A stretch of 64,000 nucleotides of DNA. Source: Yuukianura sp. NJ FZ-2021 (Eukaryota). The stretch is taken from assembly GCA_046563655.1 (NCBI GenBank), contig CM102285.1, positions 2,294,001 through 2,358,000 of the forward strand. The letters run 5' to 3'. A program made the position numbers and the translations under genes. The notes under the pieces were generated by a model, which had not been told where the DNA came from, did not search any database, and was given only the letters and a program-made list of their open reading frames with translations. This document shows, in pieces, positions 1 through 59,129 of this stretch (positions are counted from its first letter, which is position 1; the number at the start of each line of letters is the position of its first letter).

Positions 1-301
1 GTGAGAAGCCCGCAAAAATCCATTGAGCAGCAATTTCTTTAATCAGTGCCTTGCCCTCCAATCCAACATTAAAATTCAAATAGTATTCTTGTACTCCTTT
101 ACTTGACTCCTTTGGTTTCCTGTTCAAGTGAGCCATCAGCGGCGAGCTTGAAGTAGACTTTGAAAACGAAATCTTCAATCGATGAGTTGAATCTGTTTTC
201 AAAATGTTGACATCAGGGTCACCAGTCACCACTTCTCCATAAGATGCAGTTGGTTGTTCCCCCTCAGCAGTTGGTGTCTCAGGAATAGTTGAAGAATCCA
301 T
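1..301 (-). CDS. Polinton hypothetical protein, 3'-truncated by the window edge (not in the ORF track)
   Basis: Manual translation from the ATG at 301 stays open to base 1: MDSSTIPETPTAEGEQPTASYGEVVTGDPDVNILKTDSTHRLKISFSKSTSSSPLMAHLNRKPKESSKGVQEYYLNFNVGLEGKALIKEIAAQWIFAGFS... There is a TATATAAA box ~50 nt upstream on the minus strand, and clear similarity to the C-terminus of the 573 ORF. Confidence 0.75.
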   Translation of the reverse strand, partial: MDSSTIPETPTAEGEQPTASYGEVVTGDPDVNILKTDSTHRLKISFSKSTSSSPLMAHLNRKPKESSKGVQEYYLNFNVGLEGKALIKEIAAQWIFAGFS

Positions 302-572
302 TTTTTTTGTTTTCGAAAAGATGTGATAAAGTTGTCATTTTTTGTTCCACTTTATATACCAAAAATTACATGACTTGGAAACATTAACAAGAGTTGTTAA
401 TTTGTTCGTAATTACTCTAATTAAGAGTATCAATGTTATTAGTTAAATGGAAACTAATTACCCTCATTAACCTTGACACTTTTTTCAAACTCAGAAACAT
501 CATTTTTGAAAACCAAATATAAACCTTTCAAAATTGAAATTGGTTATAACATTTTTTTCCAAAAGTTGAGCA
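302..572. promoter_or_regulatory. Putative bidirectional promoter between two divergent Polinton genes
   Basis: AT-rich intergenic gap with TATATAAA on the minus strand (~351-358) and TATAAA on the plus strand (~518-523), each ~50 nt upstream of its ATG. Confidence 0.5.
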
Positions 573-1681
573 ATGACAGAAGCAAGCATTGTAACAGAAA
601 TTAACTCTCAATTCCAAAATGGAACTGAGAGGCCAAGAACTTGTCCAGGTTTCAAACTTTTTAAAAAAAGGAGTAACAAGTCGGAAAAATTTCCAGTTTT
701 GTTTCGAGATTTTGGTTTAAACAAGTTACCATTTACTAAACTTTGTAACCATAATCCGTGTGAGCCACAAGCAGAATACGAATATTACTTAACTAAACTC
801 GTAGCAAATGAGTTTTTGAATGGAAGCCAGTGGGAAAGTCTTCGACCAATGACTTGGAGGGAATTTTACAGTGGTGTAACTGGTCCTCCAACTCCAGTTT
901 TTGCAGAGCTTAGTGAAATTGATTGGGATCATTGCCATGGTTTTTTATTAGACAAGGGACCATTGGCTTTGTCTGAAGGTCAAAGTGCTACAAACATGTA
1001 TCCTGGTGTAAATTGGATCCCCACGAATAACGTACCATATACAAAGGCGTGTCCCCACGGTGGTCACTGCGATAAAAGCGTAGTGGCCAAATTCTCAATA
1101 ATTCGCGCCTATGCATGCGGAGTTTTGCCTGGCTTCGACCCTGATACGGTGAGTGCATTGGGTCCTCTGGAGACAATTCAAGAAACTGCAAGTACTAGCT
1201 ATCTGAACCAAGTCACAGATGGTGGCATTGGATTGAGAACAGCAATAATAAACTTGCTGAATGAGACGGATACTCCAGAATCACCAAAGTGGCATCCCTC
1301 AAGTCTTGTAATTGCTGATCCAAATTTGGAACCCTTTGCCTTTCGTACATTGGTTTGGACACAGCAAAGCACTTGGAATGGTACTGAAAGTACAATGGTA
1401 CACATGGAAAGAAAGCCAAGAGTTTCAACAAGGCCAGACACAAAGGAAATGTACCTCAACTTTAGTTTACACGAAAGTCCTGGTGTAATTTCAGAATTGG
1501 TTCGACATTGTATTCTCGGAGGTTTAGACGATGAATTGAAACCAGTTTTTGGTATCCTCAAGGAAAAGTTTCAACGGAGGTAAGTTTTTTTTACAACTTT
1601 TTTTTTCTGGATTTTTCAATTTTTTTTTTTTGCAGATCCGGGGGAGGGAGGGGGAGACGCCGCGCCGCCGCCCCCATATGA
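573..1681 (+). CDS. Polinton hypothetical protein (~350 aa), probably two exons: 573-1579 and 1636-1681
   Basis: 336-aa ORF in the track. Its stop overlaps a GTAAGT donor at 1580, followed by a T-rich tract and TTGCAG acceptor ending at 1635. Splicing adds SGGGRGRRRAAAPI* in frame. No recognisable domain. Confidence 0.7.
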
Positions 1682-1785
1682 AGCCTATGGCTTCATAACA
1701 TATGCGAATAACGCATAGGATATGCCCTTTGGGCATAAAATATGCCCCTATGGGGCATAAGGAGCCTTATGCGAATAACGCATAG
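1677..1785. repeat. Tandem array of short perfect palindromes/hairpins bounded by TATG...CATA
   Basis: tatgaagcc-tat-ggcttcata (1677-1697), tatgcg-aataa-cgcata (1701-1717), tatgccc-ttt-gggcata (1721-1737), tatgcccc-tat-ggggcata (1741-1759), tatgcg-aataa-cgcata (1768-1784), plus an overlapping gcataagg-ag-ccttatgc (1755-1772). Confidence 0.92.
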
Positions 1786-1841
1786 AAATTGAATAAAATG
1801 AGAGTCATGGGCGGAAATGTAGTGTAGTTTTGTTTTTGACT

Positions 1842-2486
1842 ATGGAGTGTCCAGACTTTGATTTTCGTCTTTTAACACCATTTTGTATGACAATTTCTGG
1901 TCCATCTCAATCTGGAAAGTCTACAATTTGTAAACAAATTTTGAAGAGAAGGCATGAGTTGCTAGATTGTTGCATAGATGAAGTTTTATATTGTTATTCA
2001 GAATTTCAATCAGAATTATTTGATGAATTGAAAAATGAAATTCCAACGATTAAATTTCATTATGGTTTACCAGAAGATTTTGGATGTGGTCAACCTCAAA
2101 TTGTGGTAATTGATGATTTAATGCAAGAAGTTTGTGCTAGAAAATCAATTTCATCACTTTTTACTAGATTATCACATCATAGATTAATTAGTGTTATTTA
2201 TTTGACACAAAATTTTTTTGAAAAGGCACAAAAGATTTTAACTAGAAACTGTAACTATATCATTTTTACAAAAAATCCTAGAGATGTTTCTCAAGTATTA
2301 AATTTTGGTAGACAGTTGACTAGAAATGGAAAACAAAATGAAAGTTTAGTATCATGTTACAATGATATTATGAACAAACCATATAGTCATATATTTATTG
2401 ACTTGCACATGCGCCAAAATGAAAAGTTTAGAATCCGTGATTCTGTTTTTCCTGAAAATTGTACAGTATATAAGTGTTGTGATTAG
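1842..2486 (+). CDS. A32/FtsK-HerA family genome-packaging ATPase (Polinton type)
   Basis: Walker A GPSQSGKST, Walker B IVVIDDLM, and downstream SHH / LTQNFF / RNCNYIIF motifs typical of Polinton ATPases. First ATG at 1842. Confidence 0.9.
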   Translation: MECPDFDFRLLTPFCMTISGPSQSGKSTICKQILKRRHELLDCCIDEVLYCYSEFQSELFDELKNEIPTIKFHYGLPEDFGCGQPQIVVIDDLMQEVCARKSISSLFTRLSHHRLISVIYLTQNFFEKAQKILTRNCNYIIFTKNPRDVSQVLNFGRQLTRNGKQNESLVSCYNDIMNKPYSHIFIDLHMRQNEKFRIRDSVFPENCTVYKCCD

Positions 2487-2503
2487 TAAAATTAGTTTGA
2501 ACA

Positions 2504-3370
2504 ATGGAGACGAGTAATAAACTTTGTCAGAATTGGATGAAAAATTTAAATTCCAATTTATTAATTAATCACATTTCAATTCCTGGAACACACAACAGTG
2601 GAGCTTTTACTAATGTTTTACCAATTTTGAACTTGTACTCTAAATGTAATTCAATGGATATAAAAAATCAATTACTATCCGGCATTCGTTTTTTTGATTT
2701 GAGGTTAAAATTAGTAAACAAACTAAAAGTGTTTCATGGTTGCATAGATATGGATTTGGATGCTAAATGTGTCTTTTCTGAAATGATTTCATTTTTAACA
2801 AAGTTTCCATCTGAATTTTTAATTGTCAAAGTAAAAGATGAATCAAAAACGTGTGAGCGGCGTTTTTGTATAGCTTTCAAATCTTTAATGAATGAATTTG
2901 GTTTGACAAATTTTTACAAGTTTGATTCTATCATACCAAATGTTGAATGTGTCAGAGGGAAAATTTTATTATTTGATGCATTTTCACCTAATCGAAACGA
3001 ATTTGGATTTGACTATGTGAATGAAAAGTTTTTTAACATTCAAAACTTTCACTGTTTATCTTGTCAAAGAGATTGTAACGAAAAGTTGAAGAAAATTACA
3101 CAATACTTGAATTTTGGAAAAAGTGACAAGTTTTTAATCAATGTTTTATCTGGCCATGGTTTAAAATTTCCTCCAAAATATATTGCTCAAGGAAATGCTT
3201 CATTTTCAAGTTGGGAACAAATTTTTAACATTTTTTGTCAAGATTTTATTGGAACAAATCAATTTACATTGGACTATATTACAAATCATAATTTGAATTT
3301 TATTGGTATAATATGTACAGATTTTCCAAACTCAATGTTAATTGATAAAATTATTAGTTGTAACTTTTAA
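2504..3370 (+). CDS. Phosphatidylinositol-specific phospholipase C (PI-PLC X domain, bacterial/fungal 1-phosphatidylinositol phosphodiesterase type)
   Basis: Motifs NWM...ISIPGTHNSG, QLLSGIRFFDLR, VFHG and C-terminal GIICTDFP match the single-domain PI-PLC TIM-barrel family. Intronless, 288 aa, no obvious signal peptide. Confidence 0.88.
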   Translation: METSNKLCQNWMKNLNSNLLINHISIPGTHNSGAFTNVLPILNLYSKCNSMDIKNQLLSGIRFFDLRLKLVNKLKVFHGCIDMDLDAKCVFSEMISFLTKFPSEFLIVKVKDESKTCERRFCIAFKSLMNEFGLTNFYKFDSIIPNVECVRGKILLFDAFSPNRNEFGFDYVNEKFFNIQNFHCLSCQRDCNEKLKKITQYLNFGKSDKFLINVLSGHGLKFPPKYIAQGNASFSSWEQIFNIFCQDFIGTNQFTLDYITNHNLNFIGIICTDFPNSMLIDKIISCNF

Positions 3371-6300
3371 GAATAATACAGTTTTATGTCTTTGTGATTG
3401 TAAGCTAGAGTTGTAATGTTATCTGGTAAAATAAAACGTTTTAAATCAAAACCGTTTATTCCCCTTCTAGATTGTTCTACGGTATATAGTTTATGATCAA
3501 AACTTCTAATTGATTTACTTTGAATAGTAGTAGAATGTCTACTTCCTTCCTCAAGTGCTTGAACATAATCCTCGAAATGGACTTGATTTTTAATTGATCG
3601 TTTAGGAATGCCTTTTGCAACCTTTTTGTCTGTCGTACTGTTTTCAATTCCAGTTTTGATGGAACGAATAATGTACATTTTTGGTTTCATAACTACCATA
3701 TGCGTAATAATTGAATTTGGAAGTTCGTCTTTTAAACATCCTAAAATATTTTTGTTTGTTGCACTGTAATATTGCCCAAAAAATGGATCGGATTGATCAT
3801 ATTTACTTAAATCAAAAACTGTACCTTCATGATCTTTCAAGTCTTGGTAAATATTTTCAGTTTCGACAAAAATGGCAAAGGAGTCAGTGTCACTGTAAAC
3901 GTTGGAAATTTTTTCATTGTACATTGGTTTCAATTTCTCAAAATACAATTTTGACATGTGAGCTTTAGACAACTCAAGACAACAGGCTCCAACAGCGATT
4001 GGTCTATCTAAAACTACTTCCAATTTTTTTAACACCAACAAAACCATGTGCGAATTGATAATTTTGACATGATTTACAGTAGGTTTTTTATTAAACCTTA
4101 AGGCTCGTTCCCTACTGTTTATGACGCGAATATTTACGCGCATTCGTTTGTTTTCTATAAATTTTCCAAAAACACTATTTGACGCCAACTTCCAAAAGGA
4201 AGATTCAATTTCGCTTGTGGCATTTGATCGTTTCAAAGTATTTAAATCAATTAATGGTTTTAACCAAGCTGATTGATAATACTTTACAGCTCTGTGAACT
4301 TTAGTTATTTGACAGCCAAGTTTTAACCACTGTTTTAAAGTTCTATATTCGCACTTGTAATTTTCTCGGTCGTAAAAATCTGTAATGAGCCTTTCACTTT
4401 TAAATGTTGTATCACCTAAACCAATGTCTTCAGCCAAGTCTGTCATTTCAAATGACACTTCATCAATCTTAACTCTTCGCTTGTATGGCATTGGTGGAAA
4501 CTGATTCAATTTGTCATGAAGATTTGTTGGTATTGTAACGTCAACTTCTGCATAATATCCAACATTTGCTTCATCTGGAATGTTTTCAAAAAATTCTTTT
4601 GGTTGCAATCTCATGGAATCCAATTCTACGTCATTTGCCCACATGTAATTTTTATGTGGGAGTTTACCAGAAAGACAGAAACCATACAAATTTGTGCAAT
4701 CTAACATTATACAAAATGTAGATGGTTTGGTCGGATCGTATGTTGGTAAAAGGAAATTATTTGGTTTACATGCCCTTAAATCTCCAACGCTAACAAAACC
4801 ACCTCTGATAGAACTTTCAAAAAAATTGTAAATTGATGGGTCTTGAATGTTTTCCAATTTCACTTTTGTGATTTTCAATGCAGCATCCATTGAAAGCATT
4901 GGTAGGCTAAAATAGTGAGCCATGTCTAACCCATAAGTTTCATAAACCAAATTTCGTACTTCCAGATAATAATCTGCAAGTATTGTAACATCACAGAGAC
5001 AATACAACAAGGTATAGTCACCTAGTGATTGAAGTCCAAAATTTTCAAAAACAGTTTTGGCATGTTCGTAATCTTCAATGGAAATATTTTCATTTGTTAA
5101 ATCGTTTTTAAAACATTCAATTCCTGGAAGTGATGTTTCGTTAAATTTTTCTACACAATCAATGTAGTTGTAGCAAAAAACTCCTTTCCTTAGTAATAAG
5201 TTTACATTTGAGCCATGACGCTCAAACACTTTTTTTGTAATTTTGAAATCTGTTTCCGGATTCATAACATTTGCAATCGTTTCTAAGCTCGTATTAAAAA
5301 ATGCAAAAGTGTCGAGAAATTTCAATGTTTGTCCACTGCGTGTTTCAATGATAATGGCAGAAAATTTTTCAGTTGAAGATGAAGCGATAACTTCAACATT
5401 TTTTACCAAATCGTTGTCATTTGCACCTTCAAGAATAAGTTTTCCATCATAGTTTTTTAAATTGTGAAAGAAAATTGTAAGCAAGTTTTTTGATTGCTGA
5501 GCTTGAAGGTTACATTGAGCATGCGCAAAACCTTCAAATCGGAATGACTCATGGCAATGGTGGGCGTGAATTCTTTCAGTTTGTGAGAATCCATTTCCGC
5601 AGAAAAAACAAAGTTGGCTACGACGAAAATTCGGGTCATTGATTTGGTTTTGTTGTTCCGGTGTCAGGATCATAATTTGTCTTGCCATTTCTTCATTTTC
5701 CTCTCTCCGAGCGGATTTTTGTTCAGCCAGTGCACACATTTCCTCTAGAAATTTTTTTGCAACGTTTTCATCATTGGATTTACCAAAATACGTACTCTGT
5801 TCCACAACTTCGTGGTTAGAATTAACACAGATCCAAGCGAAAGCACCGGGTGAGTGTTGGTTTAGAAGCCTCGAGCCACAAATAATTTTAAATTCTTGGA
5901 GTATTTTCAAAACTGACTCAAAGTCTGCGAAAACTAGGTTTGCAATACGAATTGTACGCTTGAACTGATTAAACTTGAGGAATTTTTCTTTTGGAAAACG
6001 AGTTTTTTGTAGTCCAAGTTGAGAACAACATTTTCTATGTTCTTCGTAACAGCGTCCAGATTTAAAAGCTTGGAGACAAAATCTACAAACGTCCTTCCCA
6101 CTGCTGTTTCCCCAGGTCTTGAACAAGAGACTGAAAAGTTTTTTTATGTAGAGAAAGTGACAATGTTCAGTAGTGATGTACATAAGCAAATCAATTTGAT
6201 GTTGACGTTCCTCTTTGCATGTGTGCAGAATGAAGCATTTTTCGCGCACGTCATTCAAAAGTTTTTTCCTGCGGTAATGAACACTTTCTTGAACTTCCGA

Positions 6301-7347
6301 ATTTTCATCTGAATTTTCCCCTCGAATTGAATCAAGAAGCTCATCAATGGTTTCATCGACGGATGTTCGCTGAGTTGGAGTGAAATCTTCAGTTAGATTA
6401 CGATCCATGTCGAAGCCAATGATGCACAATCCTATTGTAGGATTTTGTTTTTCAAATTTTTTTATTTGATCAATTGAAAATGGAAATGTTATACCACGCC
6501 AGTTGACTATTGTTTCCCCTGACTCTTGATTCAAACGAAAAAGATTGTCGTAGTACCTTTTCGACTTCAACATGACACTAATCCATTGTCGAGATACATT
6601 TGGAAGGTCAGCGCGTAGACTATGATGAACATGAACAGCTCTCTTAAAACACAAGTTATCATCACTAGGGACATTAATCAGACAATTAATTTTTCGTTTT
6701 AAAATGTCCGGCAGAGGAATGCTTTGACCAGCACAAAACTGAACATTTTCACAAATTGTTATGAAAAATGTTATTACACTTTTAAAGTTGAGATTTGAAG
6801 CCAAAGAAACAAAGTTTTCAATTCGTTCCTTAAAGTACAAAAGAGACTTGCGAATAACAAAACTGATGTCCAAATCGTTGTTGACACCAAAAAGGAAAGT
6901 AGTGAAGATGGGATTTGATTGTCTCAACCTCCCATCGCTTTCGATTTTTTCAAAATGCATCGTTCCGCTGAACTGTATCTTAAAGTTTTTGAACTTGGCC
7001 AGCATGTCACGCATCAAAGTGATGAAAGAAGAGCGTTGTCGCTTAAAAATTTCATCGATGGTATAAACTTGATCATGCTCAAGTTGAACTTGAAATTCTT
7101 GATACGTATCGTTTAGGCTTTCACCAGACAAAACAATTGGTAAAGGATTTTGAGTTTCGCTGCGTTGAGAGCCGCAACCATGTTGATTAGTGGTGTTGGA
7201 ATGTGCTGTGCGTAAGTGATCTTGAAAGTCAATCACACGGTTGAATTTTTGATTACATTGAACACAATGCCTCAATCGAATTGCTTCAATGGTAATCCCA
7301 TCATCAGACTCTTCTGATGAACTGTACTCAACCAACCTTGTAGCCAT
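3367..7347 (-). CDS. Protein-primed family B DNA polymerase (pPolB) with N-terminal C2H2 zinc finger, OTU-like region and inserted endonuclease VII-like domain
   Basis: Exonuclease motifs ADFES and FHNLKNYD. Polymerase motifs LDCTNLYG, KLASNSVFGK, YSDTDS, KMY and AKGI. CVQC...H...H finger at the N-terminus. CFFC...HHCH...FEGFAHAQCNL EndoVII-like insert. Uninterrupted 1326-aa ORF. Confidence 0.95.
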   Translation of the reverse strand: MATRLVEYSSSEESDDGITIEAIRLRHCVQCNQKFNRVIDFQDHLRTAHSNTTNQHGCGSQRSETQNPLPIVLSGESLNDTYQEFQVQLEHDQVYTIDEIFKRQRSSFITLMRDMLAKFKNFKIQFSGTMHFEKIESDGRLRQSNPIFTTFLFGVNNDLDISFVIRKSLLYFKERIENFVSLASNLNFKSVITFFITICENVQFCAGQSIPLPDILKRKINCLINVPSDDNLCFKRAVHVHHSLRADLPNVSRQWISVMLKSKRYYDNLFRLNQESGETIVNWRGITFPFSIDQIKKFEKQNPTIGLCIIGFDMDRNLTEDFTPTQRTSVDETIDELLDSIRGENSDENSEVQESVHYRRKKLLNDVREKCFILHTCKEERQHQIDLLMYITTEHCHFLYIKKLFSLLFKTWGNSSGKDVCRFCLQAFKSGRCYEEHRKCCSQLGLQKTRFPKEKFLKFNQFKRTIRIANLVFADFESVLKILQEFKIICGSRLLNQHSPGAFAWICVNSNHEVVEQSTYFGKSNDENVAKKFLEEMCALAEQKSARREENEEMARQIMILTPEQQNQINDPNFRRSQLCFFCGNGFSQTERIHAHHCHESFRFEGFAHAQCNLQAQQSKNLLTIFFHNLKNYDGKLILEGANDNDLVKNVEVIASSSTEKFSAIIIETRSGQTLKFLDTFAFFNTSLETIANVMNPETDFKITKKVFERHGSNVNLLLRKGVFCYNYIDCVEKFNETSLPGIECFKNDLTNENISIEDYEHAKTVFENFGLQSLGDYTLLYCLCDVTILADYYLEVRNLVYETYGLDMAHYFSLPMLSMDAALKITKVKLENIQDPSIYNFFESSIRGGFVSVGDLRACKPNNFLLPTYDPTKPSTFCIMLDCTNLYGFCLSGKLPHKNYMWANDVELDSMRLQPKEFFENIPDEANVGYYAEVDVTIPTNLHDKLNQFPPMPYKRRVKIDEVSFEMTDLAEDIGLGDTTFKSERLITDFYDRENYKCEYRTLKQWLKLGCQITKVHRAVKYYQSAWLKPLIDLNTLKRSNATSEIESSFWKLASNSVFGKFIENKRMRVNIRVINSRERALRFNKKPTVNHVKIINSHMVLLVLKKLEVVLDRPIAVGACCLELSKAHMSKLYFEKLKPMYNEKISNVYSDTDSFAIFVETENIYQDLKDHEGTVFDLSKYDQSDPFFGQYYSATNKNILGCLKDELPNSIITHMVVMKPKMYIIRSIKTGIENSTTDKKVAKGIPKRSIKNQVHFEDYVQALEEGSRHSTTIQSKSIRSFDHKLYTVEQSRRGINGFDLKRFILPDNITTLAYNHKDIKLYYS

Positions 7348-7899
7348 TTTAAATTTTTTCTTTTTTGTAACTAAAGTTTCCTAAACGCTGTTGGGTTTTA
7401 TTGATGTTGAAAATGAACTAATTGAAAATTAATGATGTAAGAAGTTGGTTGATATTGTAGAAACTTATCAGTAAATGAGTTTCATGTCAGTTAAGTGAAA
7501 ATTAATTACTCTCCAAAAGTGATCTGGAGTATCTTTATTCAGAAATAAGTTGTTTTTACGAGCATTGTTAGGATAATCTGGAAAATGTTTTCTTAATTGG
7601 ATGCCCAAATCTCGAATTATGTTCATTCTAAGTTGATTGCTCGAAACTGGGTCATAGTGTATCCCAAAGAATTAAGAAAGAAGAAAGTATTAGTTTGCTG
7701 GAACTTTGGTTTTTCTTTTTGGATAAGAGATGTATATTCTGGAGGATACGAATGCGGAACAACCATTTTTGGAAATCTGTTTTGAACTGGGCATTACTCA
7801 AAAGACGACTTTCTACTAAAGTGGCTAAATGGCATTTTAATGTTATTAGATCATTAACGTGCATTAATTACGTAATTTTGCTGCCAAATGGTCTAGTTG

Positions 7900-8009
7900 G
7901 TTAGAAAAGGTGTTGAAAAGTGGTCTTGCGTACTTTTAGAGGTATTGACAAGTGCTCAAGTCTGTTTACATAGGGTGGGATTTACAAATGCTGCACTATC
8001 CTTACTACT
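7900..8009. repeat. Candidate right terminal inverted repeat end of the Polinton (inner boundary unknown)
   Basis: Reverse complement from 8009 begins AGTAGTAAGG. The following 6 bp (ATTGTC, 8010-8015) would be the target-site duplication. The partner TIR is outside the window, so this is unverified. Confidence 0.45.
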
Positions 8010-8558
8010 ATTGTCTTATTTGCGAGAAAATAGGACTTTAAATTTTACTTTACTAGTACTTTAATAGTATTTTAATAGTACTTTCATAGTACCTTCTAAA
8101 TTGGTGTAAAACGTGATTGCTACACCAGTTCTAAATAATTTTACATTTTATGTAATTTAAATCAAACAAAACACTTTGAGATATTTAAGCTTCACGTTGC
8201 TGAATCATAATTATGATTTTGAGTTGCTTTTGCAACGCACCCGCGACAGATTTGTGTTTCAAAAAATTTGAAAATTTGAAGAAAAAAAAACAAAAAGAGT
8301 TATCGTATAACCTGTTACGAAAAAACAAGCAAAATTTCGATAAGCTATCTTGGGGGCTTCTTACTGTAATTGTGATCGTAAATATGAATACTATTCGTCA
8401 AAGAAATCTATCGGTTGCCTGTTTGACAGCATGCGCTGTGTACAGTAATTCAAACATATTAAACAACAGAAATAAACCAAATACACTGTAGGAATCAAAT
8501 ACAAAACTTGTAACTGGAAGAGAATTGAGTAAATTCTTATCATAGCTGTAAGAGTCGG

Positions 8559-11451
8559 CTATGTTATTATACAACACTGCAGTTGGTTTGCAGTGGCTCC
8601 ATTTCGTGCTCCGTATGCGTCCCATACGTTTATGACATTCACGCTGTCATGGTACTGCATTAATGCTTGTCGGTATTGATCCTGAAAAAAGTGAATAAAT
8701 ATATTTTGTAGTACTTTATAAAAATTTGTTCAACGCTTCATTGAGGTTTGTCAATTGAAATGTAAAAGTCGGTGTGAAGAAGTAAATTTGATTAAATCAA
8801 ACAGGGATCAATGAAGTTATAGATTAATTCACTCACCAATTCAAATTTGTCAAAACTGAAAACCAGTCTTTGAAGACGGCGTAATTCTCCTGTTCTACTT
8901 GCGTAAATCACACCTTTCCAACAGTCAGTGTTCTCCCAAAAAAATGACAACTCTGACAAAACTATCAAATTCAAAGAAAAAAATTTAAATTATGACTTGA
9001 AAATATTTGACTCAATACTTAAACCATCCGTACAAAATAATAAACTGCTTACATGGTAAGTTCCGGAAAGAATCCATACAACCTGAAGTTTTGTGAGGTT
9101 TAAGCGGGAAATTGCAAATTTTATTATTCGGAATGTATTTTGCTCCGCCGGTTAGATATTTCCAATGTAACCGACTTACACCACGGCTTGTACTACCACT
9201 GACAAGAATGCTAAGACCAAGTTTCCGTAATTTTGAAAATCCAAAAATGCCCTTCAGTGTTTCAGATGTAATTTTTATTTCTTCAACATTTGGTAGCATG
9301 AATGGCCACTGCTGAAGTTCATCGTCAGTTATTAAGTCAATTTCTGCACGTTTCACGTTTGGAAAGATACATCCGAAAAAGCTTGAGTCTTTGGTTATTA
9401 TGCAATTCTGACAACTGAGTCTAGTAAGCACGGGGAAATACGCCTGTTTACCTTTCACCCCTTGAATTCGGAATCCAAAAATTTCAAAAATTTGCATTTT
9501 TGCTAAGGAGTTCAGCGGCAACAAAAGTGGATAACCTGGAGCCGCATCAGGAGGCCTGATAATCACAGCAAGCTTGCTCACAAATGTCAATTTTTCTAAC
9601 CATTTTTCCAAAATGTGAAGTGTTTGATATACCGATTCTGCGCCAATATCGGTGTCTGGAGCATACATCTCCAATCTCAACTTAAGAATTTTAAATTGTT
9701 TTGAAATTGTGACAAAATTTTTTACATCATCGATCTCAGGATCCCAAATGCTCATATTTAACTTTATATGTACATTTGGTTTTACTTTGTGCACATGGTC
9801 TAACAAAGCTGTAACCAATGGTAACTTCAGTTGTGGACCATCGACTGAAATAGTATGTAGATTTGGCGCTAATTTCAAAAATTGAACCATTAGTGGAAAA
9901 CAGTCGTCTGAAGGAAATCTTGTCATGTATCTGAATATAAATGTGTTGATTGTGCGTAAGTTGTTTAGTACAGGAATTATTGCATCTTCACCCATTTCAA
10001 CTCCACGAACGATGTAGTGAGTGAATTCCTCTACATTTTGGCAGTTTTCCAACAACGCTTTGACGTTTTCGGAAAAGGCATCTGTGATTGAAAAACAAAC
10101 GTTCAGAATATCCCAGGTTTTAACAAATTTTCCAAATTCGGAACAAAACGTGTTCAGTGGCTCCAGCGACATTCGATCGCACAGAAGATAATCTCTGAAA
10201 CCAAATTTTTTAAAAGTAAAACTAGTTTGGTTTTGTCGAAACACTGAAACGTAGTTGACGACGTCACTGACTTTGTGGAAGTCTACTCTGCAACGAGTTT
10301 GAACAAATGGTATTGCCAGTAGATTGAAACGATGACTCACGAGACGTAACTTTGGAATGTCGTTTTTGTCCAAACAGCTTATGATTATCTCGAGCAGCTT
10401 AAGAGACAGTAGTGGATAATAAAATCAAACAAGTTTCAATAACAAAATCATTTCAAAAAAATAAACTTCTTGCAAAGAGGATGTAAATAAGTATCGTCAG
10501 ATCAATTATAGAGAGTTCCCGCGCCGGATATTGTTGACCTTTAGAAATTGGCGGCTTTTGAACTTGGCTGTTTTAGGATTGGCGGCTAAGGAATTGGTGG
10601 CTTTAGAGATTGGCGGCTTTTCAAATTGGCCACTTTAGGTTTGACGGCTTTAGAAATTGGCGGCTTTAGAAATTGGCCACTTTAGTTTTGGCGGCTTTAG
10701 AAATTGGCGGCTTTTGAAATTGGCCCTTTTAGAATTGGCGGCTAAGGTATTGGTGGCTTTAGAAATTGGCGGCTTTTGAAATTGGCCACTTTAGGCTTGG
10801 CGGCTTTAGAAATTGGCGGCTTTTGAAATTGGCCGCTTTAGGATTGGCCGGAATTTGGCCACCTCCGGTCAAACCAGAAACCGATTAGTCACCCCTGTAC
10901 CATGCGAAGGTCATCTGCGCAGACAGGTTAAAAATCGGTTCAGTGGTTCCAAAGTTATAGACGCGCGTAGCATGAGCGACGCCATTTTGCAACTTGCAGC
11001 GTCTATATCTCTAGAACCGTCGGTCAAAGGTCAAGATCGCCGACAGAAAAGTTGTTCCTCTCATTGAGATGAACAACTTTTGTAGAGGCCATTTTTCCAA
11101 ATTCCGTCAAAAATATATTTGACCTTGGGCTTTGACCCGGAAGTTGGCCACTTCCGGTCAAACCGAAAACCACTTATCCACCTCTGGACCATGTGCAGTT
11201 CATTTGTGAAGACAGATTGAAAATCGGTCCAGCGGTTCCGGAGAAGTTGTGGCTAGTATACAGTCGGACGGACAGACGGACGGACAGACGGACGGACAGA
11301 CGGACGGACAGACGGACGGACAGACGGACGGACAGACGGACGGACGGACGGCCATTACGATCCCTATAAGTATCTGACGATACTTAATAAAAAAAGTTTC
11401 TTAAACATATTTTTCCTAATTCAACCTTACTTCATTGGGAACAAATTCCAT
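8559..11451 (-). CDS. F-box/LRR-like protein, copy 1 (exons ~11451-11431, 10397-9053, 8961-8837, 8681-8559)
   Basis: Spliced N-terminus MEFVPNE|LLEIIISCLDKNDIPKLRLVSHRFN is an F-box motif, followed by LRR-like LxxL repeats. GT-AG introns sit at the same positions as in the paralog. C-terminus reads ...QLQCCIIT*. Confidence 0.8.
10540..10860. repeat. ~20-21 bp minisatellite (consensus ~TTAGAAATTGGCGGCTTT)
   Basis: Many degenerate head-to-tail units of attggcggcttt/attggccacttt with no unique spacers. Confidence 0.9.
11265..11351. repeat. Compound (GGAC/AGAC)n microsatellite (12-bp GGACGGACAGAC units)
   Basis: Directly visible in the sequence. Confidence 0.95.
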
Positions 11452-12153
11452 GGTTATTGTAGAAACCAGCACCAAACAGTTAGTAATTTAATGGACAACT
11501 GACTCATTAATACAGATTTGCAAACATTATTATCTTACTTTTTTATCAAACGCTTTATTATCTATTAAAAATTAGTGATTATTGTTTGCAAGTGCACTTT
11601 GGTAGCATTATTTGACAATTTATTTACTTTGTACTTTAAAATTTAGTTTCATTTTAATTTACAAATTTGTGTAAAATTTGGTGTTGCCAAACACGTTTTT
11701 TAATATTTTATGTTTTATGTATTTTAAGTCAAACACATCACTATACGTCCTCCAACACTTTTAAAAGTGTTAATAAATTAAATATTAATTATTCCTAACC
11801 TCACATGGTGTGGCTAATCCTAAGATGTGGCTGAATTCACAGTTTTTACATTAATTCAAAGCAGAATTAACGCTCACATTCAAATTTAATTAGTTGATAG
11901 TTAATTAATTTTACCTTGATTCACCTGAAAAACGAAGTTCAAATTTCATAAACAAAAGTAGAATTTCTATAAATCTATTTCAAAAACAATTAAAAAAAAT
12001 TTGTTACCATACACCATTGGTGTTGTGCTAGTCCTGAAAATTTCAAGACCATAGTTAGTGTATACATCCGTTTGCATCAGTTCGAATTGCGTTAGGCCTA
12101 AAGAAATGGACGGCAAGGACATGAAAACTGTTCAGTTTTTAAACGTTTGAAGT

Positions 12154-14594
12154 TCAAAATGAAAAGGTGGTGGGAGTATTGGAAGCTATCACAACGGTAT
12201 CGTGATACTTCAACAACGCTTGTCGGTAGTTTTTTTCCTGAAATATTCAGAATTACACTTTCCCAAATTGAAATTTATAGTATAGTTTATTAGTGTGGCG
12301 AGTTGATACTTAATATTTATAAAATTCAGTTTAACTAGTGCTAACAATCACCTCTTTGAAACCTTTGAAACTGAATACCAGTTTTTTAAGACGTCCTAAA
12401 TGTCCAGTTCTACTTGCGTAAATTATTCCTTTCCAACACTGTGTTTTTTCGTTAGAAAACGTTAAATACGTCAGCCCTGAAAAAAATAGCCGTGGAATAT
12501 TTGTCATAATTTTGGTCAAATAAAATTGAAAACTTCATACAATACACAATTCTTACCTGGCACATTCCGAAAATCGACTAATTCGGAGGTTGTGTGATCT
12601 CCTATCCGAAAATTACAGATTCTGTCATTCGTGATAAATTTAGCTCCGCCTGTTAGGTACTTCCATTGCAAACGACGTGTACCATGATCGTTATTTGATT
12701 CGACACAAATCTTCAGTTTCCGTAGCTTTGAAAATTGCAAAATTTCTTGAAATGTTTCAGAAACGACTTCCAGCTCTTGCACATTCGGTATCATAAGTGG
12801 CCACCGTTCAAGCTCTTCTTCCGTTGTTAAACTGATGTTGGCATATCTTACATTTGGAAAGACGTAACCGGTGAAATTGAACTTCTTAAGAATTTCACAA
12901 TTTCTGCAATTGAGTGTGGTTAGAACCGGGAATTCCATGGGTATAGCACCTACTGGCGTGTGTAAATAATATACTTCTAAATATTCCAACTTCTTTAGAG
13001 AATCCAATGGTATCACAATAGGACGTGCTTCATATACATAATCAATAGCAGCCGGAGTAGGACGTGGTTCATATCCGTAATCAATAGCAACCGTATTTCT
13101 CACCCGACGTTTGAAAACGAGAGAAAGTTTGCGCAAAAATGCTAGTTTTAAAATCCATTTTGATAAAATTTGATGTGTTTGATCTATTAGTGCGGAATTC
13201 GTATCCCGTAGAGGTGGATTTAACAACAACTTCAACTCAGCAACTGGAAATTTTGTAGAAATTTCAATCAAATTCTTTAGTTCATCGATGTTATTTACCG
13301 GAGTCAGAAGAAATAGATCCAACTTGTTGATATGAAAGTTTTGATTGAACCGGTACAGTTGTTTCAACAGGTTTATTGCACGCGTTGGAGGCTCAGTATC
13401 ACATTTCCGATTTTCGATTGAAACGTTGCGGACATTTGGCGCTATTTTTAGAATTTGATTAAGAAGAAACAGAAAATCTTGTGTGGTTGGAACTTTGGCG
13501 TATTTGATGTTGATTGTCTTTAAAGAGTAGAATGGAGGTAGATCAGCAGTTCCGCCAACTTCTACTTTCCAAATGAAGTGACTAATTTCTTCCACGTTTA
13601 AGCAATTTTCCAGTAAGGTTTTGATGTTTACTTCTGTCGGAGAGTCTGCTATAGTGGTTTCCGTCAATATTTCCCAAACTTTAACAAATTTTCCAAATTT
13701 GACACAAAACTGGAGCAAATGCGGAGGACAATGCGATAAGAGACCTTGACAGAATCCAAACTTTTCATACGGTAAAACCGTGTTGTGTTGTTCAAAAGTT
13801 TCAATAAAGTTCGAAATGTCGACGTCCTTCGTAAATTCCACCATAAATAACTTTTTTACCAGAGGAATTGTTAGTTGATTGAAGCGCCTATTCACGAGTC
13901 TCATCTTTGGAATGTCATCCTTGCTCAAATAATTAAGGATGTGAACCCGTAGCTGAAATACAAGAGAACAAGACATTAATCATAACGAAGTGGTATTTAA
14001 AATTGTATGTTTTTTAAGTTTATTGGAATAACTTTACTATTATGTGGTATTTCGGATTTTGATCAAATTGTTTTTCAAAATACCTTACTGACCCCTGATA
14101 CCAAAAATATATTTATTTTTTTTCGAAAATGAAATTTCTAATTTTTGGAAATTTTTGAAATTTGATAAGTCGCCATAAGGTTATATTCTTACAGCTTAAT
14201 TTTTTAAATTTTTTTTCAGTTTACGGATTTATTTGATTTTTAATGTAACGTAACAAACCTAACTGGCCTCTCTTCGCTCGGCTAGTTTCGTAAAGCATCA
14301 GTGTTTTTTGACAAAAATCAATAAATTTGTAATAAAAGTTAACATGTAACCTTATAACCTTATGGGGATTTTACAAATTTTCTAATTTCAAAAATTTCCA
14401 ATACTAATTCAAAATTTCATTTCCTGGAAAAAATAAATATATTGTTGGCATCCGGGGTAAATTGTGTGTTTTGAAAAAAAAATTGATAAAAATCCGAGAT
14501 ACAGCCCGATAGTAAAACTTTACCAGTTGATTTTATAATAAATACAAACCTAAAATGAAAAAGTTGAACTTACATCAAACGGAATACAATCCAT
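12154..14594 (-). CDS. F-box/LRR-like protein, copy 2 (exons ~14594-14574, 13952-12557, 12476-12352, 12237-12154)
   Basis: MDCIPFD|LRVHILNYLSKDDIPKMRLVNRRFN F-box motif. Colinear with copy 1 (shared FGKFVK.W.IL, WKYLTGGAK, CWKG.IYASRTG, YRQAL) and with identical intron phases. Confidence 0.8.
14033..14516. mobile_element. Degenerate foldback/MITE-like element with long inverted arms in intron 1 of F-box copy 2
   Basis: 14033-~14200 (tttactat...cggatttt...aatatatttattttt...ccataaggttata) is the diverged reverse complement of ~14340-14516. Confidence 0.7.
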
Positions 14595-25000: not shown

Positions 25001-25830
25001 AAATCGTATTTTACGTACTGCATAAATAATTTAAGAAAACGGCAGAACCTTTGTGTTGGCGATTTCGCGTTTTTTTTCTCTGTGCGTTGGATTTTTGACA
25101 ATTTGAGGTTTATAAACTTTTGTGTGAAGAAGGCTTTAGATGAAATTTTTTTTAATGAAATTATAATTCGGAACGCGTTGGTAATCGTAGAAGTGCAGAC
25201 CCTGCACCTGAGTTTGACAATTTGAATTTCCCTCGTCAAAAAGAAAAGAGGGGAGCGGAGAGCGACGTCTGATGAAGGAAGTGCCAAGGAAAGATGATGG
25301 ATGGACCTGTAATGTTTGTTTGCTACCCAAATGTATTCATGCATGCTTCTTTTCCTTTCACTTCAATTCACAATTTCCCGCCACTACGAACAGTCACTTC
25401 AACAACACGCATGCATTTCCCTCTTTTACGAAACCATACATGCATGCTCTCTCCAGTTTTCGTCGGATTCAAAACCCAAAAGCGCCAAAAGACCAACAAA
25501 AACTGGACTCGATCCGAAACCGAAAGCCCAAAAAGCTGTTTCGCTTCATCGCAGCGGACCCCTTTGCTGTGATGATGACGCTTTTCACAAAATTTGTTGT
25601 TGACCACGCACACCATAACTCTAACATACCTTAAAACCTAACATAACTCCCCACCCCTACCCCCATTTTGGGATGAATGTGGTGGGGTGCAAGGTTCGTA
25701 AACAAAAAGAACACTTTTCTACACCAGGTTCTCCAATAACTCGAAGTTTTAAAATTTGTTTTTTGAAAGTAGCAAATTTGCCTTTCTATGGTAATTTTGG
25801 CCTGTAATTTAAACGGGATTGGTGGTGTTA

Positions 25831-25928
25831 AATTGGTGCTAAAACTTGCTTGAAGCAAGATTTTTGAAAACCCTGAGTTATTGGACAACCTGCTGTAGGA
25901 AATACAATTCGGTTGTCATAGAACCTTG
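25831..25928 (+). repeat. Dispersed repeat fragment (inverted copy at ~49127-49224)
   Basis: aattggtgctaaa...aaaaccctgagttattggacaacctgctgtaggaaatacaattc...aaccttg matches the reverse complement of 49127-49224 with scattered mismatches. Confidence 0.75.
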
Positions 25929-44411: not shown

Positions 44412-44912
44412 TCAGATTCCAAGAGTGCGCTTAATCCAGTTTGAGAATTCTGCCACACTGATAAACCCATTCTTATTGACGTCGGCTTCCTGGAGAAATT
44501 TGTCGTAATCGTCGACGTAGGGTTTCAACTTCCGTTCATGTTTTACCATTAAATCCACAAAACCTTTGAATTCTTCCTCTGAAATCAACCCATTACCGTC
44601 TCGGTCATAAGCACGTCCAAGTCTCAGTGCTGCTGCGGATGGTCCAGCACGATCAGCTAAAATAACTTCCAAATACTGGGACAGGGTGATGACACCTTCG
44701 TAATGAGTGTCCCAGTACGCCTTGTATGCTTCACATTGCTCCGCGCTTTGATAGTAGTTCAATGCATGAAGAGCAATTTCCGTGTCGGTAGAGAGAATGT
44801 ACGGTTCGGCTCCCTCCTCGTGTCGGTGTGAAGGAAGCGATTGGAAAACTTCTATTAATTTTTCGATGTCCTTTTCGGTAAATGGCTTACTCCAGTCCAA
44901 ACGGTGCGACAT
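44412..44912 (-). CDS. Intronless EF-hand calcium-binding protein, copy A (166 aa)
   Basis: Canonical loops DRDGNGLISEEE and DVNKNGFISVAE. Colinear with the neighbouring paralog. Confidence 0.88.
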   Translation of the reverse strand: MSHRLDWSKPFTEKDIEKLIEVFQSLPSHRHEEGAEPYILSTDTEIALHALNYYQSAEQCEAYKAYWDTHYEGVITLSQYLEVILADRAGPSAAALRLGRAYDRDGNGLISEEEFKGFVDLMVKHERKLKPYVDDYDKFLQEADVNKNGFISVAEFSNWIKRTLGI

Positions 44913-45552: not shown

Positions 45553-46053
45553 TTAGATTAGCAGCGTATCTTTGATCCAGGTTGCAAACTCCTGCAAACT
45601 CACCAAGCCGTCTTGGTTGCTGTCAGCTTCCTCCACAAATTTGTCAAAGTCGTAGATGAATCCCTTCAGTTTCGGTTCGTGTATTGCCATGAATTCGACA
45701 AATTCTTTGAACTCCTCGCGAGAAATGAATCCGTCCCCCTCTTTGTCCCAAGCAGCTCCAGCGACTAGCGAAGCTTTCGAAGCGCCTTGGTTAACGGCAA
45801 TAACGGTCTCCATATACCTGGACATGGTCACAAGTCCGCCGTAGTGTTCGTCCCAAAGCTTCTTGTACGTTTCACATTGTTCTGCGTCTCGATAGTAGTT
45901 CATTGCCCGGAGACAAGTTTCGACGTCGGATGATAAAAAGTATGGTTCGTTCCCGTCTTCGGCTCGATACGTGGGAAACGTAGGAGGAATTTTCTTGAGC
46001 CTTTCGATGTCTTCGTCGGTAAACGGCTTACTCCAGTCAATAGGAGTCGACAT
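45553..46053 (-). CDS. Intronless EF-hand calcium-binding protein, copy B (166 aa)
   Basis: Loops DKEGDGFISREE and DSNQDGLVSLQE. Same length as copy A, with shared DWSKPFT and NYY..AEQCE motifs. Confidence 0.88.
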   Translation of the reverse strand: MSTPIDWSKPFTDEDIERLKKIPPTFPTYRAEDGNEPYFLSSDVETCLRAMNYYRDAEQCETYKKLWDEHYGGLVTMSRYMETVIAVNQGASKASLVAGAAWDKEGDGFISREEFKEFVEFMAIHEPKLKGFIYDFDKFVEEADSNQDGLVSLQEFATWIKDTLLI

Positions 46054-58768: not shown

Positions 58769-59129
58769 AATGTGAAGGCAATGTTTGACAAAATAGGTGC
58801 TAACCGTCTTAGTGTAAAATAAGAAGTGAAGGAAGCCATTTAAATTAACTTGATTGTTTTTTGTAATACCGCCCAAGACCGAAATTTTGGCCTTCATTCG
58901 CGGATTAGCTTAAAATTCTTTAAATTATTCACATTAGATCCACGTTCGATCCTGAGTTGCTCATAAATAGCCATATACACAAATATAGCGCTGGTAATTG
59001 AAAATTCCAGTGTACAATAGTATCGAAGGATACCCATGTACCATCGAACGGTTGCTCATACCGGCACACCTCACTGAGCGATACTGCGCTGCAGTTATGA
59101 ATTTAAAATAAAGTTCTTTAAAAAAACGA

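Follow-up and report, generated by a model that had tools for sequence, protein, structure and literature searches.

We analysed a stretch of 64,000 nucleotides from contig CM102285.1 of Yuukianura sp. NJ FZ-2021, hereafter called the window. The window holds only the right part of a virus-like element, the left side of which continues past window position 1, and the following features were assigned:

2 to 334, minus strand: probable next gene of the element, with its start near 334 and cut by the left edge of the window
573 to 1583, plus strand: ORF of the element family with no assigned function (336 aa, internal duplication)
1842 to 2486, plus strand: A32/FtsK-type DNA-packaging ATPase (214 aa from the first ATG; Walker A GPSQSGKST, Walker B IVVIDD)
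2504 to 3370, plus strand: predicted PI-PLC gene (intronless 288-aa ORF, single TIM-barrel domain, no signal peptide)
3367 to 7347, minus strand: protein-primed DNA polymerase PolB (intact 1326-aa ORF; homologues with PF03175)
7348 to 8829, no strand: from the PolB start codon to the flank of a host F-box-like paralogue, with the right end of the element somewhere inside

The ORF at 2504-3370 is as the original prediction had described it: intronless, 288 aa long, separated from the ATPase by 17 nt and overlapping the convergent PolB gene in a TTAA. Indeed, the ATPase ORF ends at 2486 and the ATG of the PLC is at 2504; the PLC stop TAA occupies 3368-3370 and the PolB stop, on the minus strand, 3367-3369, the TTAA at 3367-3370 being common to both. 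An AATAAA follows at 3430. An in-frame stop lies directly 5' of the ATG (the stop-to-stop frame begins at 2501), therefore an unspliced N-terminal extension is impossible. We observed that the frame was open in none of 20,000 mononucleotide shuffles of the 867 nt and that the other five frames of this stretch contain 15-28 stops each, which indicates that the PLC frame is more than a chance opening. The GC content is 0.266 in the PLC gene and 0.284 in the ATPase gene, with 0.362 in the host flank; in L002, a metagenomic element with the same gene order, the values are 0.376 for the PLC and 0.36 for the ATPase. Since the base composition of the PLC is close to that of its neighbour in both elements, this argues for a long residence and against recent capture. 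The DNA of this locus is found again, 98-99.7% identical, in contigs from sequencing runs with two organism labels and from two studies, including a contig of 2171 nt that spans the ATPase, the PLC and the end of PolB. In run X1, one contig joins 2338 to 3419 (2338>3419), which would bypass the PLC; this joint was not used, its shorter side being only 24 letters, and neither were the gaps in coverage of this stretch in X3 and X4.

The product had been called a microbial-type PI-PLC, and this is borne out by profile, sequence and fold searches. The protein matches Pfam PI-PLC-X (PF00388) over residues 25-157 with an E-value of 1.3e-5 and 25.3 bits, above the cut-off of 23.1; NCBIfam and PHROGs gave no match. 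With phmmer against the PDB, we found S. aureus, Listeria and Bacillus PI-PLC at E-values from 1.2e-17 to 5.8e-11, bacterial PI-PLC accounting for 25 of the 26 matches. An AF2 model was obtained with a pLDDT of 93.5 and a pTM of 0.92. Its best Foldseek match is the Listeria PI-PLC 1aod (E 3.5e-22, TM 0.78/0.81), ranks 1-24 are bacterial PI-PLC throughout (TMq 0.70-0.78), and the first eukaryotic PLCs appear at E ~1e-6 with a TMq of 0.32-0.50. In the model all 288 aa belong to the barrel, with no pX-like or other added domain; it is a single distorted barrel as in 1aod and 1ptd, lacking the Y-box, EF-hand and C2 domains of eukaryotic PLCs. Judged from its sequence and its model, the product of 2504-3370 is a single-domain, bacterial-type PI-PLC. 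We also noted that the protein has no added domain of a kind that would suggest packaging.

The catalytic set proposed for this protein stood in its main part, with H30, R67, H78 and D273 present in the motifs GTHNS (28-32), DLR (65-67), FHG (77-79) and TDFP (272-275); two active-site Asp residues, however, are replaced by Asn (N31 and N181). Among 161 aligned homologues, the catalytic columns are kept in 159 rows for H30, 160 for D65, 159 for R67, 155 for H78 and 156 for D273, and K111 and R151, in further homologue columns, are also kept in the PLC. N31 stands at the Asp33-equivalent column (Asp in 131/161, Asn in 22/161), N181 at the Asp column of the inositol site (Asp in 144/161, Asn in 16/161) and H183 at a Tyr column (Y in 94, F in 32, W in 24 and H in 3 of the 161). 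The column of N181 is that of B. cereus Asp198, with a role in the inositol site. The kept columns correspond to His32, Arg69, His82, Asp274, Lys115 and Arg163, which are named in the available text of 10.64898/2026.07.28.741319, PMC9572076 and PMC7054996. For B. cereus, the first two of these sources describe, in the parts available, His32 and His82 as the general base/acid pair, acting with Arg69, and the C-terminal Asp274 as positioning a His; Tyr200, the equivalent of H183, is an accessory residue in the available text of PMC7054996. N31, N181 and H183 are natural minority variants. The pair N31 and N181 is found in only 3 other rows among the 161 homologues, and with these replacements the activity or specificity of the enzyme may be lowered or changed.

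The original prediction had placed the gene between the packaging ATPase and the polymerase of a Polinton-like element, and both neighbours agree with this, one being an A32-like ATPase and the other a protein-primed PolB. The own Pfam matches of the window ATPase are weak (AAA and Adeno_IVa2, all below cut-off), and NCBIfam and PHROGs gave none. It is 41-66% identical to related ATPases; that of L049, 41% identical over 210 aa, passes Pox_A32 (E 4.5e-6, 26.8 bits, cut-off 22.8), as do the ATPases of six other related loci. PolB has no Pfam match of its own at E<=0.01; its 373 homologues at E<=1e-3, the best of which is 57% identical, include many with PF03175 DNA_pol_B_2, PF02945 EndoVII or C2H2, and the columns of the exonuclease and polymerase motifs are invariant in alignment A1. 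The ORF at 573-1583 is matched at two places (E 2.4e-9 and 5e-4) by a 211-aa ORF of L049; it gave no match in Pfam, NCBIfam or PHROGs, and its Atlas scores are all below 0.9. For the ORF at 2-334 no family match was found, and none in 90 PolB-related loci at E<0.3. On the right, a direct repeat (D12, 8830-8944 vs 12345-12459) marks the flank of two host F-box-like paralogues. One of these host genes has an F-box family match in Atlas with a score of 0.95. No inverted-repeat partner was found inside the window, where only one end of the element can lie, and the right part of the element contained in it, which runs off the left end, gave no match to rve integrase, adenain-like protease, double-jelly-roll capsid or penton protein.

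The comparison set consisted of the 90 PolB-related loci, in 63 of which the sequence extends 1000 nt or more past the end of PolB. The Pfam scan of the relatives covered 71 ORFs from 7 loci, out of 111 ORFs from 9 loci; L049, which was scanned separately, L020 and any ORF contained in a longer one on the opposite strand were left out of it. We detected rve integrase in L049, L081, L083, L010, L035, L015 and L031, a Peptidase_C5 match just under the cut-off of 21.3 in L049 (E 3e-4, 20.9 bits) and a DJR-like domain in L081 (E 7e-56) and L083 (E 3e-41). Directly beside the A32 ATPase, a PLA2-domain protein (PF08398) is encoded in L081 (E 6e-10) and L083 (E 8e-9). The presence of adenain protease, rve integrase, double-jelly-roll capsid protein and PLA2 in PolB relatives indicates that the element is a Maverick/Polinton, an assignment that rests on its two hallmark genes, PolB and the A32-like ATPase, together with the gene content of these relatives.

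When other copies with the ATPase-PLC-PolB order were looked for, as had been suggested, one independent and diverged element came up: the order ATPase>PLC><PolB is found in 1 of the 90 loci, the metagenomic element L002. PolB is 61% and the ATPase 66.5% identical (141/212) between L002 and the window, and the PLC about 31-35%. The PLC of L002 has no leader and carries one frameshift, before which it reads GTHNS and keeps the Arg and the His; the PolB of L002 is in at least three pieces. Where the PLC is absent, as in the relatives L001 and L049, PolB and the ATPase are separated by only 484 and 237 nt. The suspicion that PI-PLC is not standard Polinton cargo is supported by this single case among 90 loci and by the papers searched, none of whose main texts joins Polinton and PI-PLC, or Mavericks and phosphatidylinositol-specific; supplementary gene tables (PMC8502044, 10.64898/2026.06.19.733378, PMC10748475, 10.1101/2022.07.12.499685) might list a PLC. 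PI-PLC would be a kind of accessory gene so far undescribed for Maverick/Polintons, in which PLA2-type lipid enzymes are already known.

A protein search with the PLC returned 3754 homologues at E<=1e-3. No protein more than 43% identical to it was found among 1.84 billion representatives and no close relative among 15 billion proteins, identity to any full-length relative being at most 33-37%. The named near matches are bacterial (Listeria, Enterococcus, Vibrio, Maledivibacter) or bacterial-type genes of eukaryotes. An N-terminal extension is absent in only 27 of 233 homologues, and 179 of the 233 have at least 18 extra residues. In a mixture-model tree of 35 rows, the window PLC, L002 and the P0143 cluster form one clade (84/95), the third member of which (P0143/P0415) has lost the first catalytic His. 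The grouping of the window PLC with L002 is unstable: they are not joined by FastTree (161 rows) or in the free search with 42 rows; for the same 42 rows, the tree constrained to the clade of the window, L002 and P0143 has a logL 1.98 above that of the free search (p-AU 0.58). The genomes of Mytilus, Patella and Brachionus have annotated PI-PLC genes of bacterial type; the 42-row tree does not place these genes of molluscs and rotifers beside the window PLC. With no stable sister group in the trees of 161, 35 and 42 rows, no donor is named. In IMG/VR, the profile of the three-member clade found no relative, and the broad family profile found 5 loci, none of them Polinton-like by size or name.

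The PLC has evolved much faster than the core genes (31-35% vs 61-66% identity between the two elements), a gap that fits relaxed constraint as well as adaptive change; at about one third amino acid identity, the synonymous sites of the window and L002 PLC genes are saturated. In a near-identical contig, a very small sample of one, both changed PLC codons are nonsynonymous (E131K and I143N) and the PolB changes are 4/4 synonymous.

We propose, with confidence that is about evenly balanced, that the gene is a lineage-specific accessory PI-PLC of a Polinton, acquired before the split between the window element and L002 and acting on membranes. A real gene for a Ca2+-independent bacterial-type PI-PLC would have been inserted before these two elements diverged, with the packaging ATPase on one side and the convergent PolB on the other, and would now be an accessory gene of a Maverick/Polinton (adintovirus-like) endogenous virus. 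Since it has no signal peptide, the enzyme would be made in the cytosol of the producing cell and, as its gene follows that of the ATPase after 17 nt in the same orientation, expression together with the late, morphogenetic genes is probable. It would bind membranes via its rim loop and helix B, with aromatic residues in the 233-250 loop and in helix 40-46 as candidates for the contact, and cleave phosphatidylinositol into diacylglycerol and inositol phosphate. The disturbed host membrane could then let particles cross, either by escape from the endosome on entry, if the PLC is packaged, or by release from the cell, a job that we liken to that of the PLA2-domain proteins beside the same ATPase in related Polintons and to that of the Listeria PI-PLC in vacuole escape. 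In our reading, the PLC is a viral accessory lipase that evolves fast and probably acts on membranes.

It is rather unlikely, in our opinion, that the gene is a passenger under relaxed constraint, captured once, without any part in the Polinton cycle, intact here as a recent integrant and decaying elsewhere. Such a history would agree with the identity of 31-35% against 61-66% for the core genes, with the frameshift in L002, with the first catalytic His lost in the P0143/P0415 cluster, with the change of active-site Asp to Asn at two places in the window PLC, with the two nonsynonymous codon changes of the near-identical contig and with the presence of the gene in 1/90 related loci. However, at about one third identity the window PLC keeps H30, D65, R67, K111, R151, H78 and D273 and is modelled with a pLDDT of 93.5, L002 keeps GTHNS, R and H up to its single frameshift, the composition of the gene is that of its neighbours, and neutral drift that far would not leave a 288-codon frame open in DNA of 27% GC. 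The gene could also be that of a host, an animal PLCXD-type or other host PI-PLC merely lying near a PolB/ATPase fragment or captured very recently, which the genes annotated in Mytilus, Patella and Brachionus might suggest. This we find hardly credible: 17 nt separate the PLC from the ATPase and its end overlaps that of PolB, the same order in L002 is a synteny that largely refutes a host origin, the GC content of 0.266 matches the ATPase and not the host flank (0.362), the gene is intronless, no protein exceeds 43% identity among the 1.84 billion representatives, and in the 42-row tree, a set without animal PLCXD sequences, it stands apart from the genes of molluscs and rotifers.

A role as cytosolic effector, and not as penetration factor, is unlikely as well; the enzyme would deplete PI and raise DAG on cytosolic leaflets, and could thereby rewire signalling or trafficking in favour of replication. 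Alternatively, it could cause cell death, which would serve lysis and release or make the enzyme the toxic component of a selfish system, comparable to the cargo of Mavericks in nematodes. The lack of a signal peptide and of any added domain fits such an effector. In the available text of PMC7054996, a leaderless Bacillus PI-PLC in the cytosol of animal cells converts PI to DAG on organelle membranes and is cytotoxic if its interfacial Trp residues are intact, and the part consulted of 10.1101/2022.07.12.499685 describes toxin-like cargo in nematode Mavericks. That cargo, however, is terminal, between the terminal repeat and the integrase, GC-rich and with introns according to the same part, whereas the PLC lies in the core between the ATPase and PolB and is AT-rich and intronless; no antidote candidate was seen beside it. 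What separates such an effector from the membrane-crossing accessory enzyme that we prefer is only the positional analogy with the PLA2 genes.

We compared the window PLC with bacterial PI-PLCs (Listeria PlcA 1aod, S. aureus, B. cereus/thuringiensis), with which it shares the single (beta-alpha) barrel of about 290 residues, the best sequence and fold matches and the His, Arg, His and Asp columns. Unlike them, it has no secretion signal, is 20-26% identical to the solved structures, has Asn for Asp at two active-site positions and His for Tyr, and is encoded by a eukaryotic virus-like element. The Listeria enzyme PlcA is a vacuole-escape factor. More generally, bPI-PLC is linked to escape from host vacuoles in the available text of 10.64898/2026.07.28.741319. 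For adintoviruses, Starrett et al. 2021 (PMC8502044, in the part available) describe membrane-active genes of the PLA2X, gasdermin-like and cupiennin-like kinds, and the PLA2 gene of adintoviruses/Polintons is presented as capsid-associated or membrane-active in sections of PMC8502044 and 10.64898/2026.06.19.733378. Like these PLA2X (parvovirus-VP1-like) genes, which in L081 and L083 lie beside the A32 ATPase, the PLC gene would give an element of this class an accessory enzyme that attacks lipids; but its product has an unrelated fold, belongs to a family of head-group phosphodiesterases and not of sn-2 acyl hydrolases and has no pX-like DNA-binding tail, and the orientation of its neighbours differs.

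Giant viruses also encode PI-PLC homologues. One of bacterial type, on the contig of a giant-virus MAG (L093 = P0466), is about 30% identical to the window PLC, with a weak grouping (93/73, unstarred). Virions of PkV RF02 contain a 'PI-PLC, Y domain' protein, as stated in the available text of PMC11953307; unlike the window PLC, this protein is annotated with the eukaryotic Y domain, and the genome type differs from that of a Polinton. Eukaryotes have cytoplasmic PI-PLCs of bacterial type as well (fungal Cyt-PI-PLC; proteins of ciliates, red algae, dinoflagellates, molluscs and rotifers); they belong to the same family and some are leaderless, both in our searches and in the available text of 10.64898/2026.07.28.741319. 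In contrast to the window gene, they are chromosomal and have no known Polinton link, and none is more than 36% identical to it over aligned columns.

Maverick/Polintons are thought to be true viruses and gene-transfer vectors between animals and, to our knowledge, almost nothing is known of how their particles cross membranes. PLA2-domain proteins are credited with membrane penetration in other Polintons and in parvoviruses, and the accessory genes proposed so far for membrane crossing are PLA2-like, gasdermin-like, cupiennin-like and patatin-like. A PI-PLC at one fixed core place in two diverged elements would be a chemically different candidate, a claim that extends to two or three carriers known from DNA, of which one is broken; the protein is small, intronless and easily expressed, and its activity is directly testable. 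By analogy with Listeria PlcA, the PI-PLC might even have taken over membrane penetration from PLA2-domain proteins in one Polinton lineage, such elements seeding leaderless PI-PLC genes into animals, a scenario that we consider distinctly doubtful. If true, a eukaryotic DNA virus would for the first time be seen to use a PI-PLC for entry or escape, and Polintons would carry leaderless PI-PLC genes of bacterial type into the genomes of animals; such genes are present in mussels, limpets and rotifers. A bacterial-family enzyme inside an animal virus-like element also bears on the scatter of bacterial-type PI-PLC genes through eukaryotes.

Just the right-hand portion of the element lies in the window; the rest runs off the left end. 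This portion comprises the following ORFs:

2-334, minus strand: ORF running off the left end
573-1583, plus strand: 336-aa ORF with a homologue in the related locus L049
1842-2486, plus strand: ATPase with Walker A and B motifs
2504-3370, plus strand: PI-PLC ORF (PLC), open over 288 codons
3367-7347, minus strand: DNA polymerase (PolB), 1326 codons, 373 homologues

The position of the PLC, its distance from the ATPase and the overlap of stop codons were part of the original prediction, and we reproduced these coordinates exactly: 17 nt separate the ATPase stop from the PLC start, and the PLC TAA (3368-3370) and the convergent PolB stop overlap within the tetramer TTAA. A stop codon lies in frame immediately 5' of the PLC ATG, so an N-terminal extension is ruled out except via a spliced upstream exon. 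The G+C content of the PLC DNA is 27%. When its 867 nt were shuffled, 0/20000 versions remained open, and each of the remaining five frames holds 15-28 stops. The start context, aacaATGg, and an AATAAA 60 nt downstream of the stop are no more than weak hints.

The protein was predicted to be a PI-PLC of microbial type, and the Pfam, PDB and structure searches agree with this. It matches Pfam PI-PLC-X with 25.3 bits (curated cut-off 23.1), and in a PDB sequence search 25 of 26 matches (E 1.2e-17 to 5.8e-11) are PI-specific phospholipases C, from Staphylococcus aureus, Listeria monocytogenes and Bacillus; the alignment with Listeria covers residues 8-257. An AlphaFold2 model built from 89 sequences has a mean pLDDT of 93.5 and a pTM of 0.92. 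Its top structural match is the Listeria PI-PLC 1aod (E 3.5e-22, TM 0.78/0.81) and the next 23 are bacterial PI-PLC entries too, whereas eukaryotic PLC-delta, -beta, -gamma, -epsilon and -zeta rank far behind (E about 1e-6, TMq 0.32-0.50). This ranking identifies the protein as a single-domain enzyme of the bacterial type and not a eukaryotic PLC.

The catalytic set was also expected to be present, and in an alignment of 161 PLC homologues this held for the core: H30, D65, R67, H78 and D273 occupy columns conserved in 155-160 of the 161 rows, and K111 and R151 occupy the Lys and Arg columns. The matching B. cereus residues are His32, Arg69, His82, Asp274, Lys115 and Arg163 (PMC9572076, 10.64898/2026.07.28.741319, PMC7054996). 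Three positions depart from the residues usual in homologues. N31 stands in a column with Asp in 131/161 rows and Asn in 22/161, N181 in one with Asp in 144/161 and Asn in 16/161, and H183 where Tyr (94), Phe (32) or Trp (24) are usual and His occurs in 3 rows; N31 and N181 are combined in just three other rows. Because of these departures, the enzyme may be slower or altered in specificity. Homology to relatives starts at about residue 5-9, and among 233 homologues aligned from the N-terminus of the query, 179 carry at least 18 additional residues and 27 carry no more than 10; the PLC has no leader.

The PolB ORF itself has no Pfam match; many of its homologues contain DNA_pol_B_2 (PF03175), an EndoVII-like segment or C2H2 fingers, and the named ones among them belong to corals, molluscs, thrips, mites, spiders and beetles. 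In alignment A1, the motifs of the exonuclease and polymerase, YSDTDS included, are invariant. We fetched 90 loci with PolB relatives (80 metagenomic and 10 from IMG/VR). Among the larger of them, L049 contains an A32 ATPase, an rve integrase and an adenain-like protease just under cut-off; L081 and L083 contain an rve integrase, an A32 ATPase, a double-jelly-roll capsid protein and a PLA2-domain protein; L010, L035, L015 and L031 contain an integrase and an ATPase. These gene sets identify the PolB family as that of Maverick/Polintons. The Pfam matches of the window ATPase (AAA/Adeno_IVa2) are all sub-threshold; it is 41-66% identical to the ATPases of related loci, seven of which pass Pox_A32. 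Integrase, protease and capsid genes had no match within the window. Overall, we hold it very likely that the PLC is a PI-PLC homologue belonging to a Polinton.

Several features of these elements were seen in passing. The 336-aa ORF is internally duplicated, a single 211-aa ORF of L049 matching both 642-827 and 927-1175, and its G+C content (0.41) is far above that of the adjoining ATPase (0.28). In the IMG/VR Polinton-like contigs L081 and L083, a DUF5679 + PLA2 (PF08398) protein (2852-3547 and 8011-8532, minus strand) and the A32 ATPase (3474-4247 and 8506-9366, plus strand) are encoded back to back, and the integrase flanks the PLA2 gene on the opposite side. L010 encodes, at 7630-8112 near its ATPase, a protein with DUF5679 only.

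We then looked for the PLC in the 90 PolB loci, by tblastn with the window proteins and with a PLC-family HMM over all six-frame ORFs; 63 of the loci extend at least 1000 nt past the PolB end. A PLC is present in exactly one of them, L002, and in the same ATPase-PLC-PolB order, in line with the view that PI-PLC is not a standard Polinton gene. This 5124-nt metagenome contig is the closest PolB relative with a readable locus (PolB 61% identical, ATPase 141/212 identical). Its ATPase is followed after 26 nt by a PLC convergent on PolB, which shares GTHNS, likewise lacks a leader and is 30% identical to the window PLC by tblastn (76/219 in a global alignment). A single frameshift in the last fifth of this PLC and a PolB frame split into at least three pieces mark L002 as a decaying copy. 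In L001 and L049, which come next in relatedness (ATPase identity 46% and 41%), the ATPase is directly convergent on PolB, 484 and 237 nt away, with no PLC; the gene was therefore acquired, or retained, solely on the branch that gave rise to the window element and L002. The PLC of each of these two elements has a base composition like that of its neighbours (G+C in the window: ATPase 0.284, PLC 0.266, host flank 0.362; L002: ATPase 0.36, PLC 0.376).

Wider searches show how isolated the protein is. The protein is absent from a collection of 5.8 billion clusters, where the best match is 34% identical. With HMMER, a full search of 1.84 billion representatives yielded 3754 matches at E<=1e-3, with nothing at E<=1e-30 and no full-length match above 37% identity. 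Named close matches are bacterial (Listeria seeligeri, Enterococcus, Vibrio, Maledivibacter), and a profile search adds annotated bacterial-type genes from Brachionus, Mytilus, Patella, a ciliate, a fungus, red algae, a dinoflagellate and a giant-virus MAG. A FastTree tree of 161 rows places the window and L002 PLCs apart; a mixture-model tree of 35 rows groups them with the metagenomic homologue P0143 (84/95). With 42 rows, including animal and giant-virus genes, a free search again placed them apart, pairing L002 with P0415 (99/96), while the tree constrained to hold the three together scored 1.98 log-likelihood units above the free tree (p-AU 0.58). From these trees, a single origin would be the best-scoring but weakly supported solution. 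All the branches concerned are long; the P0143/P0415 cluster is leaderless and has a C-terminal pattern in common with the window and L002, and its first catalytic His is gone. No stable sister group, and hence no donor lineage, emerged in the 161-, 35- and 42-row trees.

Among the relatives, the mollusc and rotifer genomes of Mytilus (P0427, P0449), Patella (P0462, P0463) and Brachionus (P0420) have annotated bacterial-type PI-PLCs, the Mytilus protein being 288 aa long with an acylation-like N-terminus, MMGNCCC, that is not a signal peptide. The giant-virus MAG contig L093 (125 kb) encodes at 10001-10783 a leaderless PI-PLC reading GTHNS (P0466), and the 360-kb IMG/VR contig L095 has such a gene at 10001-10525. 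IMG/VR contigs L091, L092 and L094 also carry one; their names point to isolate genomes and they are probably prophage calls.

The PLC is a bacterial-type PI-PLC that lacks a leader, is well folded and retains the core catalytic residues, and its place between ATPase and PolB is fixed in both of the diverged elements. The synteny with L002 argues against a host gene, a reading that is nearly excluded. Comparison with four DNA sequencing runs gave contigs spanning ATPase, PLC and PolB end in a single piece in two runs of one organism (X1 and X2; X1 piece 1710-3880, 7 differences from the window). In a separate study of another organism (X3), short pieces fall on the 336-aa ORF, ATPase, PLC and PolB with 98-99.6% identity (PLC piece 2852-3229, 6 differences). 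The rival reading of a passenger gene under relaxed constraint can be set beside the X1 contig, in which both changed PLC codons are nonsynonymous (E131K, I143N), all four PolB changes are synonymous and the ATPase is unchanged, a sample too small to weigh. That the enzyme is active is somewhat more likely than not.

Bacterial-type PI-PLCs cleave PI, and some of them GPI anchors, without Ca2+ to give DAG and inositol phosphate, and require interfacial aromatic residues for membrane binding (PMC9572076, PMC7054996). Since the PLC lies 17 nt behind the ATPase in the same orientation, it would probably be expressed with the late block. Its position resembles that of the PLA2 genes adjoining the same ATPase in related Polintons, which Starrett et al. 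interpret as membrane-active virion genes in adintoviruses (PMC8502044). By this analogy, the PLC would probably serve to breach a host membrane during entry or release; we rate the penetration role in particular as less likely than not. Another reading is a cytosolic effector or toxin; leaderless Bacillus PI-PLC expressed in animal cytosol is described as producing DAG on organelle membranes and as cytotoxic (PMC7054996). PI-PLC in Polintons or Mavericks was not found in the literature searched, as had been supposed: the main texts of the nematode Polinton/Maverick and adintovirus papers and of the 2024 animal-virus transfer and 2026 PLV framework preprints name PLA2, unspecified or patatin-like phospholipases and do not mention it. 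Accessory genes that attack lipids are already known from Polintons; the enzyme class and the core location are new.

Beyond about 8.8 kb lies host-like sequence with two F-box-like paralogues, EF-hand genes, tandem 7TM-like genes, and exons for Kringle and tyrosine-kinase domains, a combination that points to an animal. In X3, most element pieces (83-6799) are 98-99.6% identical to the window, and host F-box pieces (12493-13869), like one PolB piece (6139-6799), about 92%; the element is possibly younger than the host divergence, with the caveat that the host pieces may be paralogues. The F-box-like, LRR-like paralogues (9012-10373 and 12516-13976, minus strand) lie about 3.5 kb apart and have similar downstream flanks (8830-8944 and 12345-12459). 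The stretch 10275-11675 is repeat-rich, with a 31/16-nt periodic repeat (10539-10848) and an ACGG/ACAG microsatellite (11248-11371) recurring at 59265 and 62368; as its summed contig depth in each of the four runs lies in the thousands to tens of thousands, it is a high-copy host repeat. Two intronless EF-hand genes are in tandem on the minus strand (44412-44912 and 45553-46053). Exons at 53994-56543 (plus strand) with a weak Kringle match, the end of a tyrosine-kinase domain and a Gln/His/Pro-rich tail resemble a ROR-like receptor kinase. An inverted repeat pair of 109 nt (25823-25931 and 49124-49232, 23 kb apart) is 82% complementary. Finally, 57364-64000 is made up of three units in tandem (about 2.6-3.1 kb long and 83-98% identical); each contains two ORFs for multi-pass membrane proteins that have no Pfam match.
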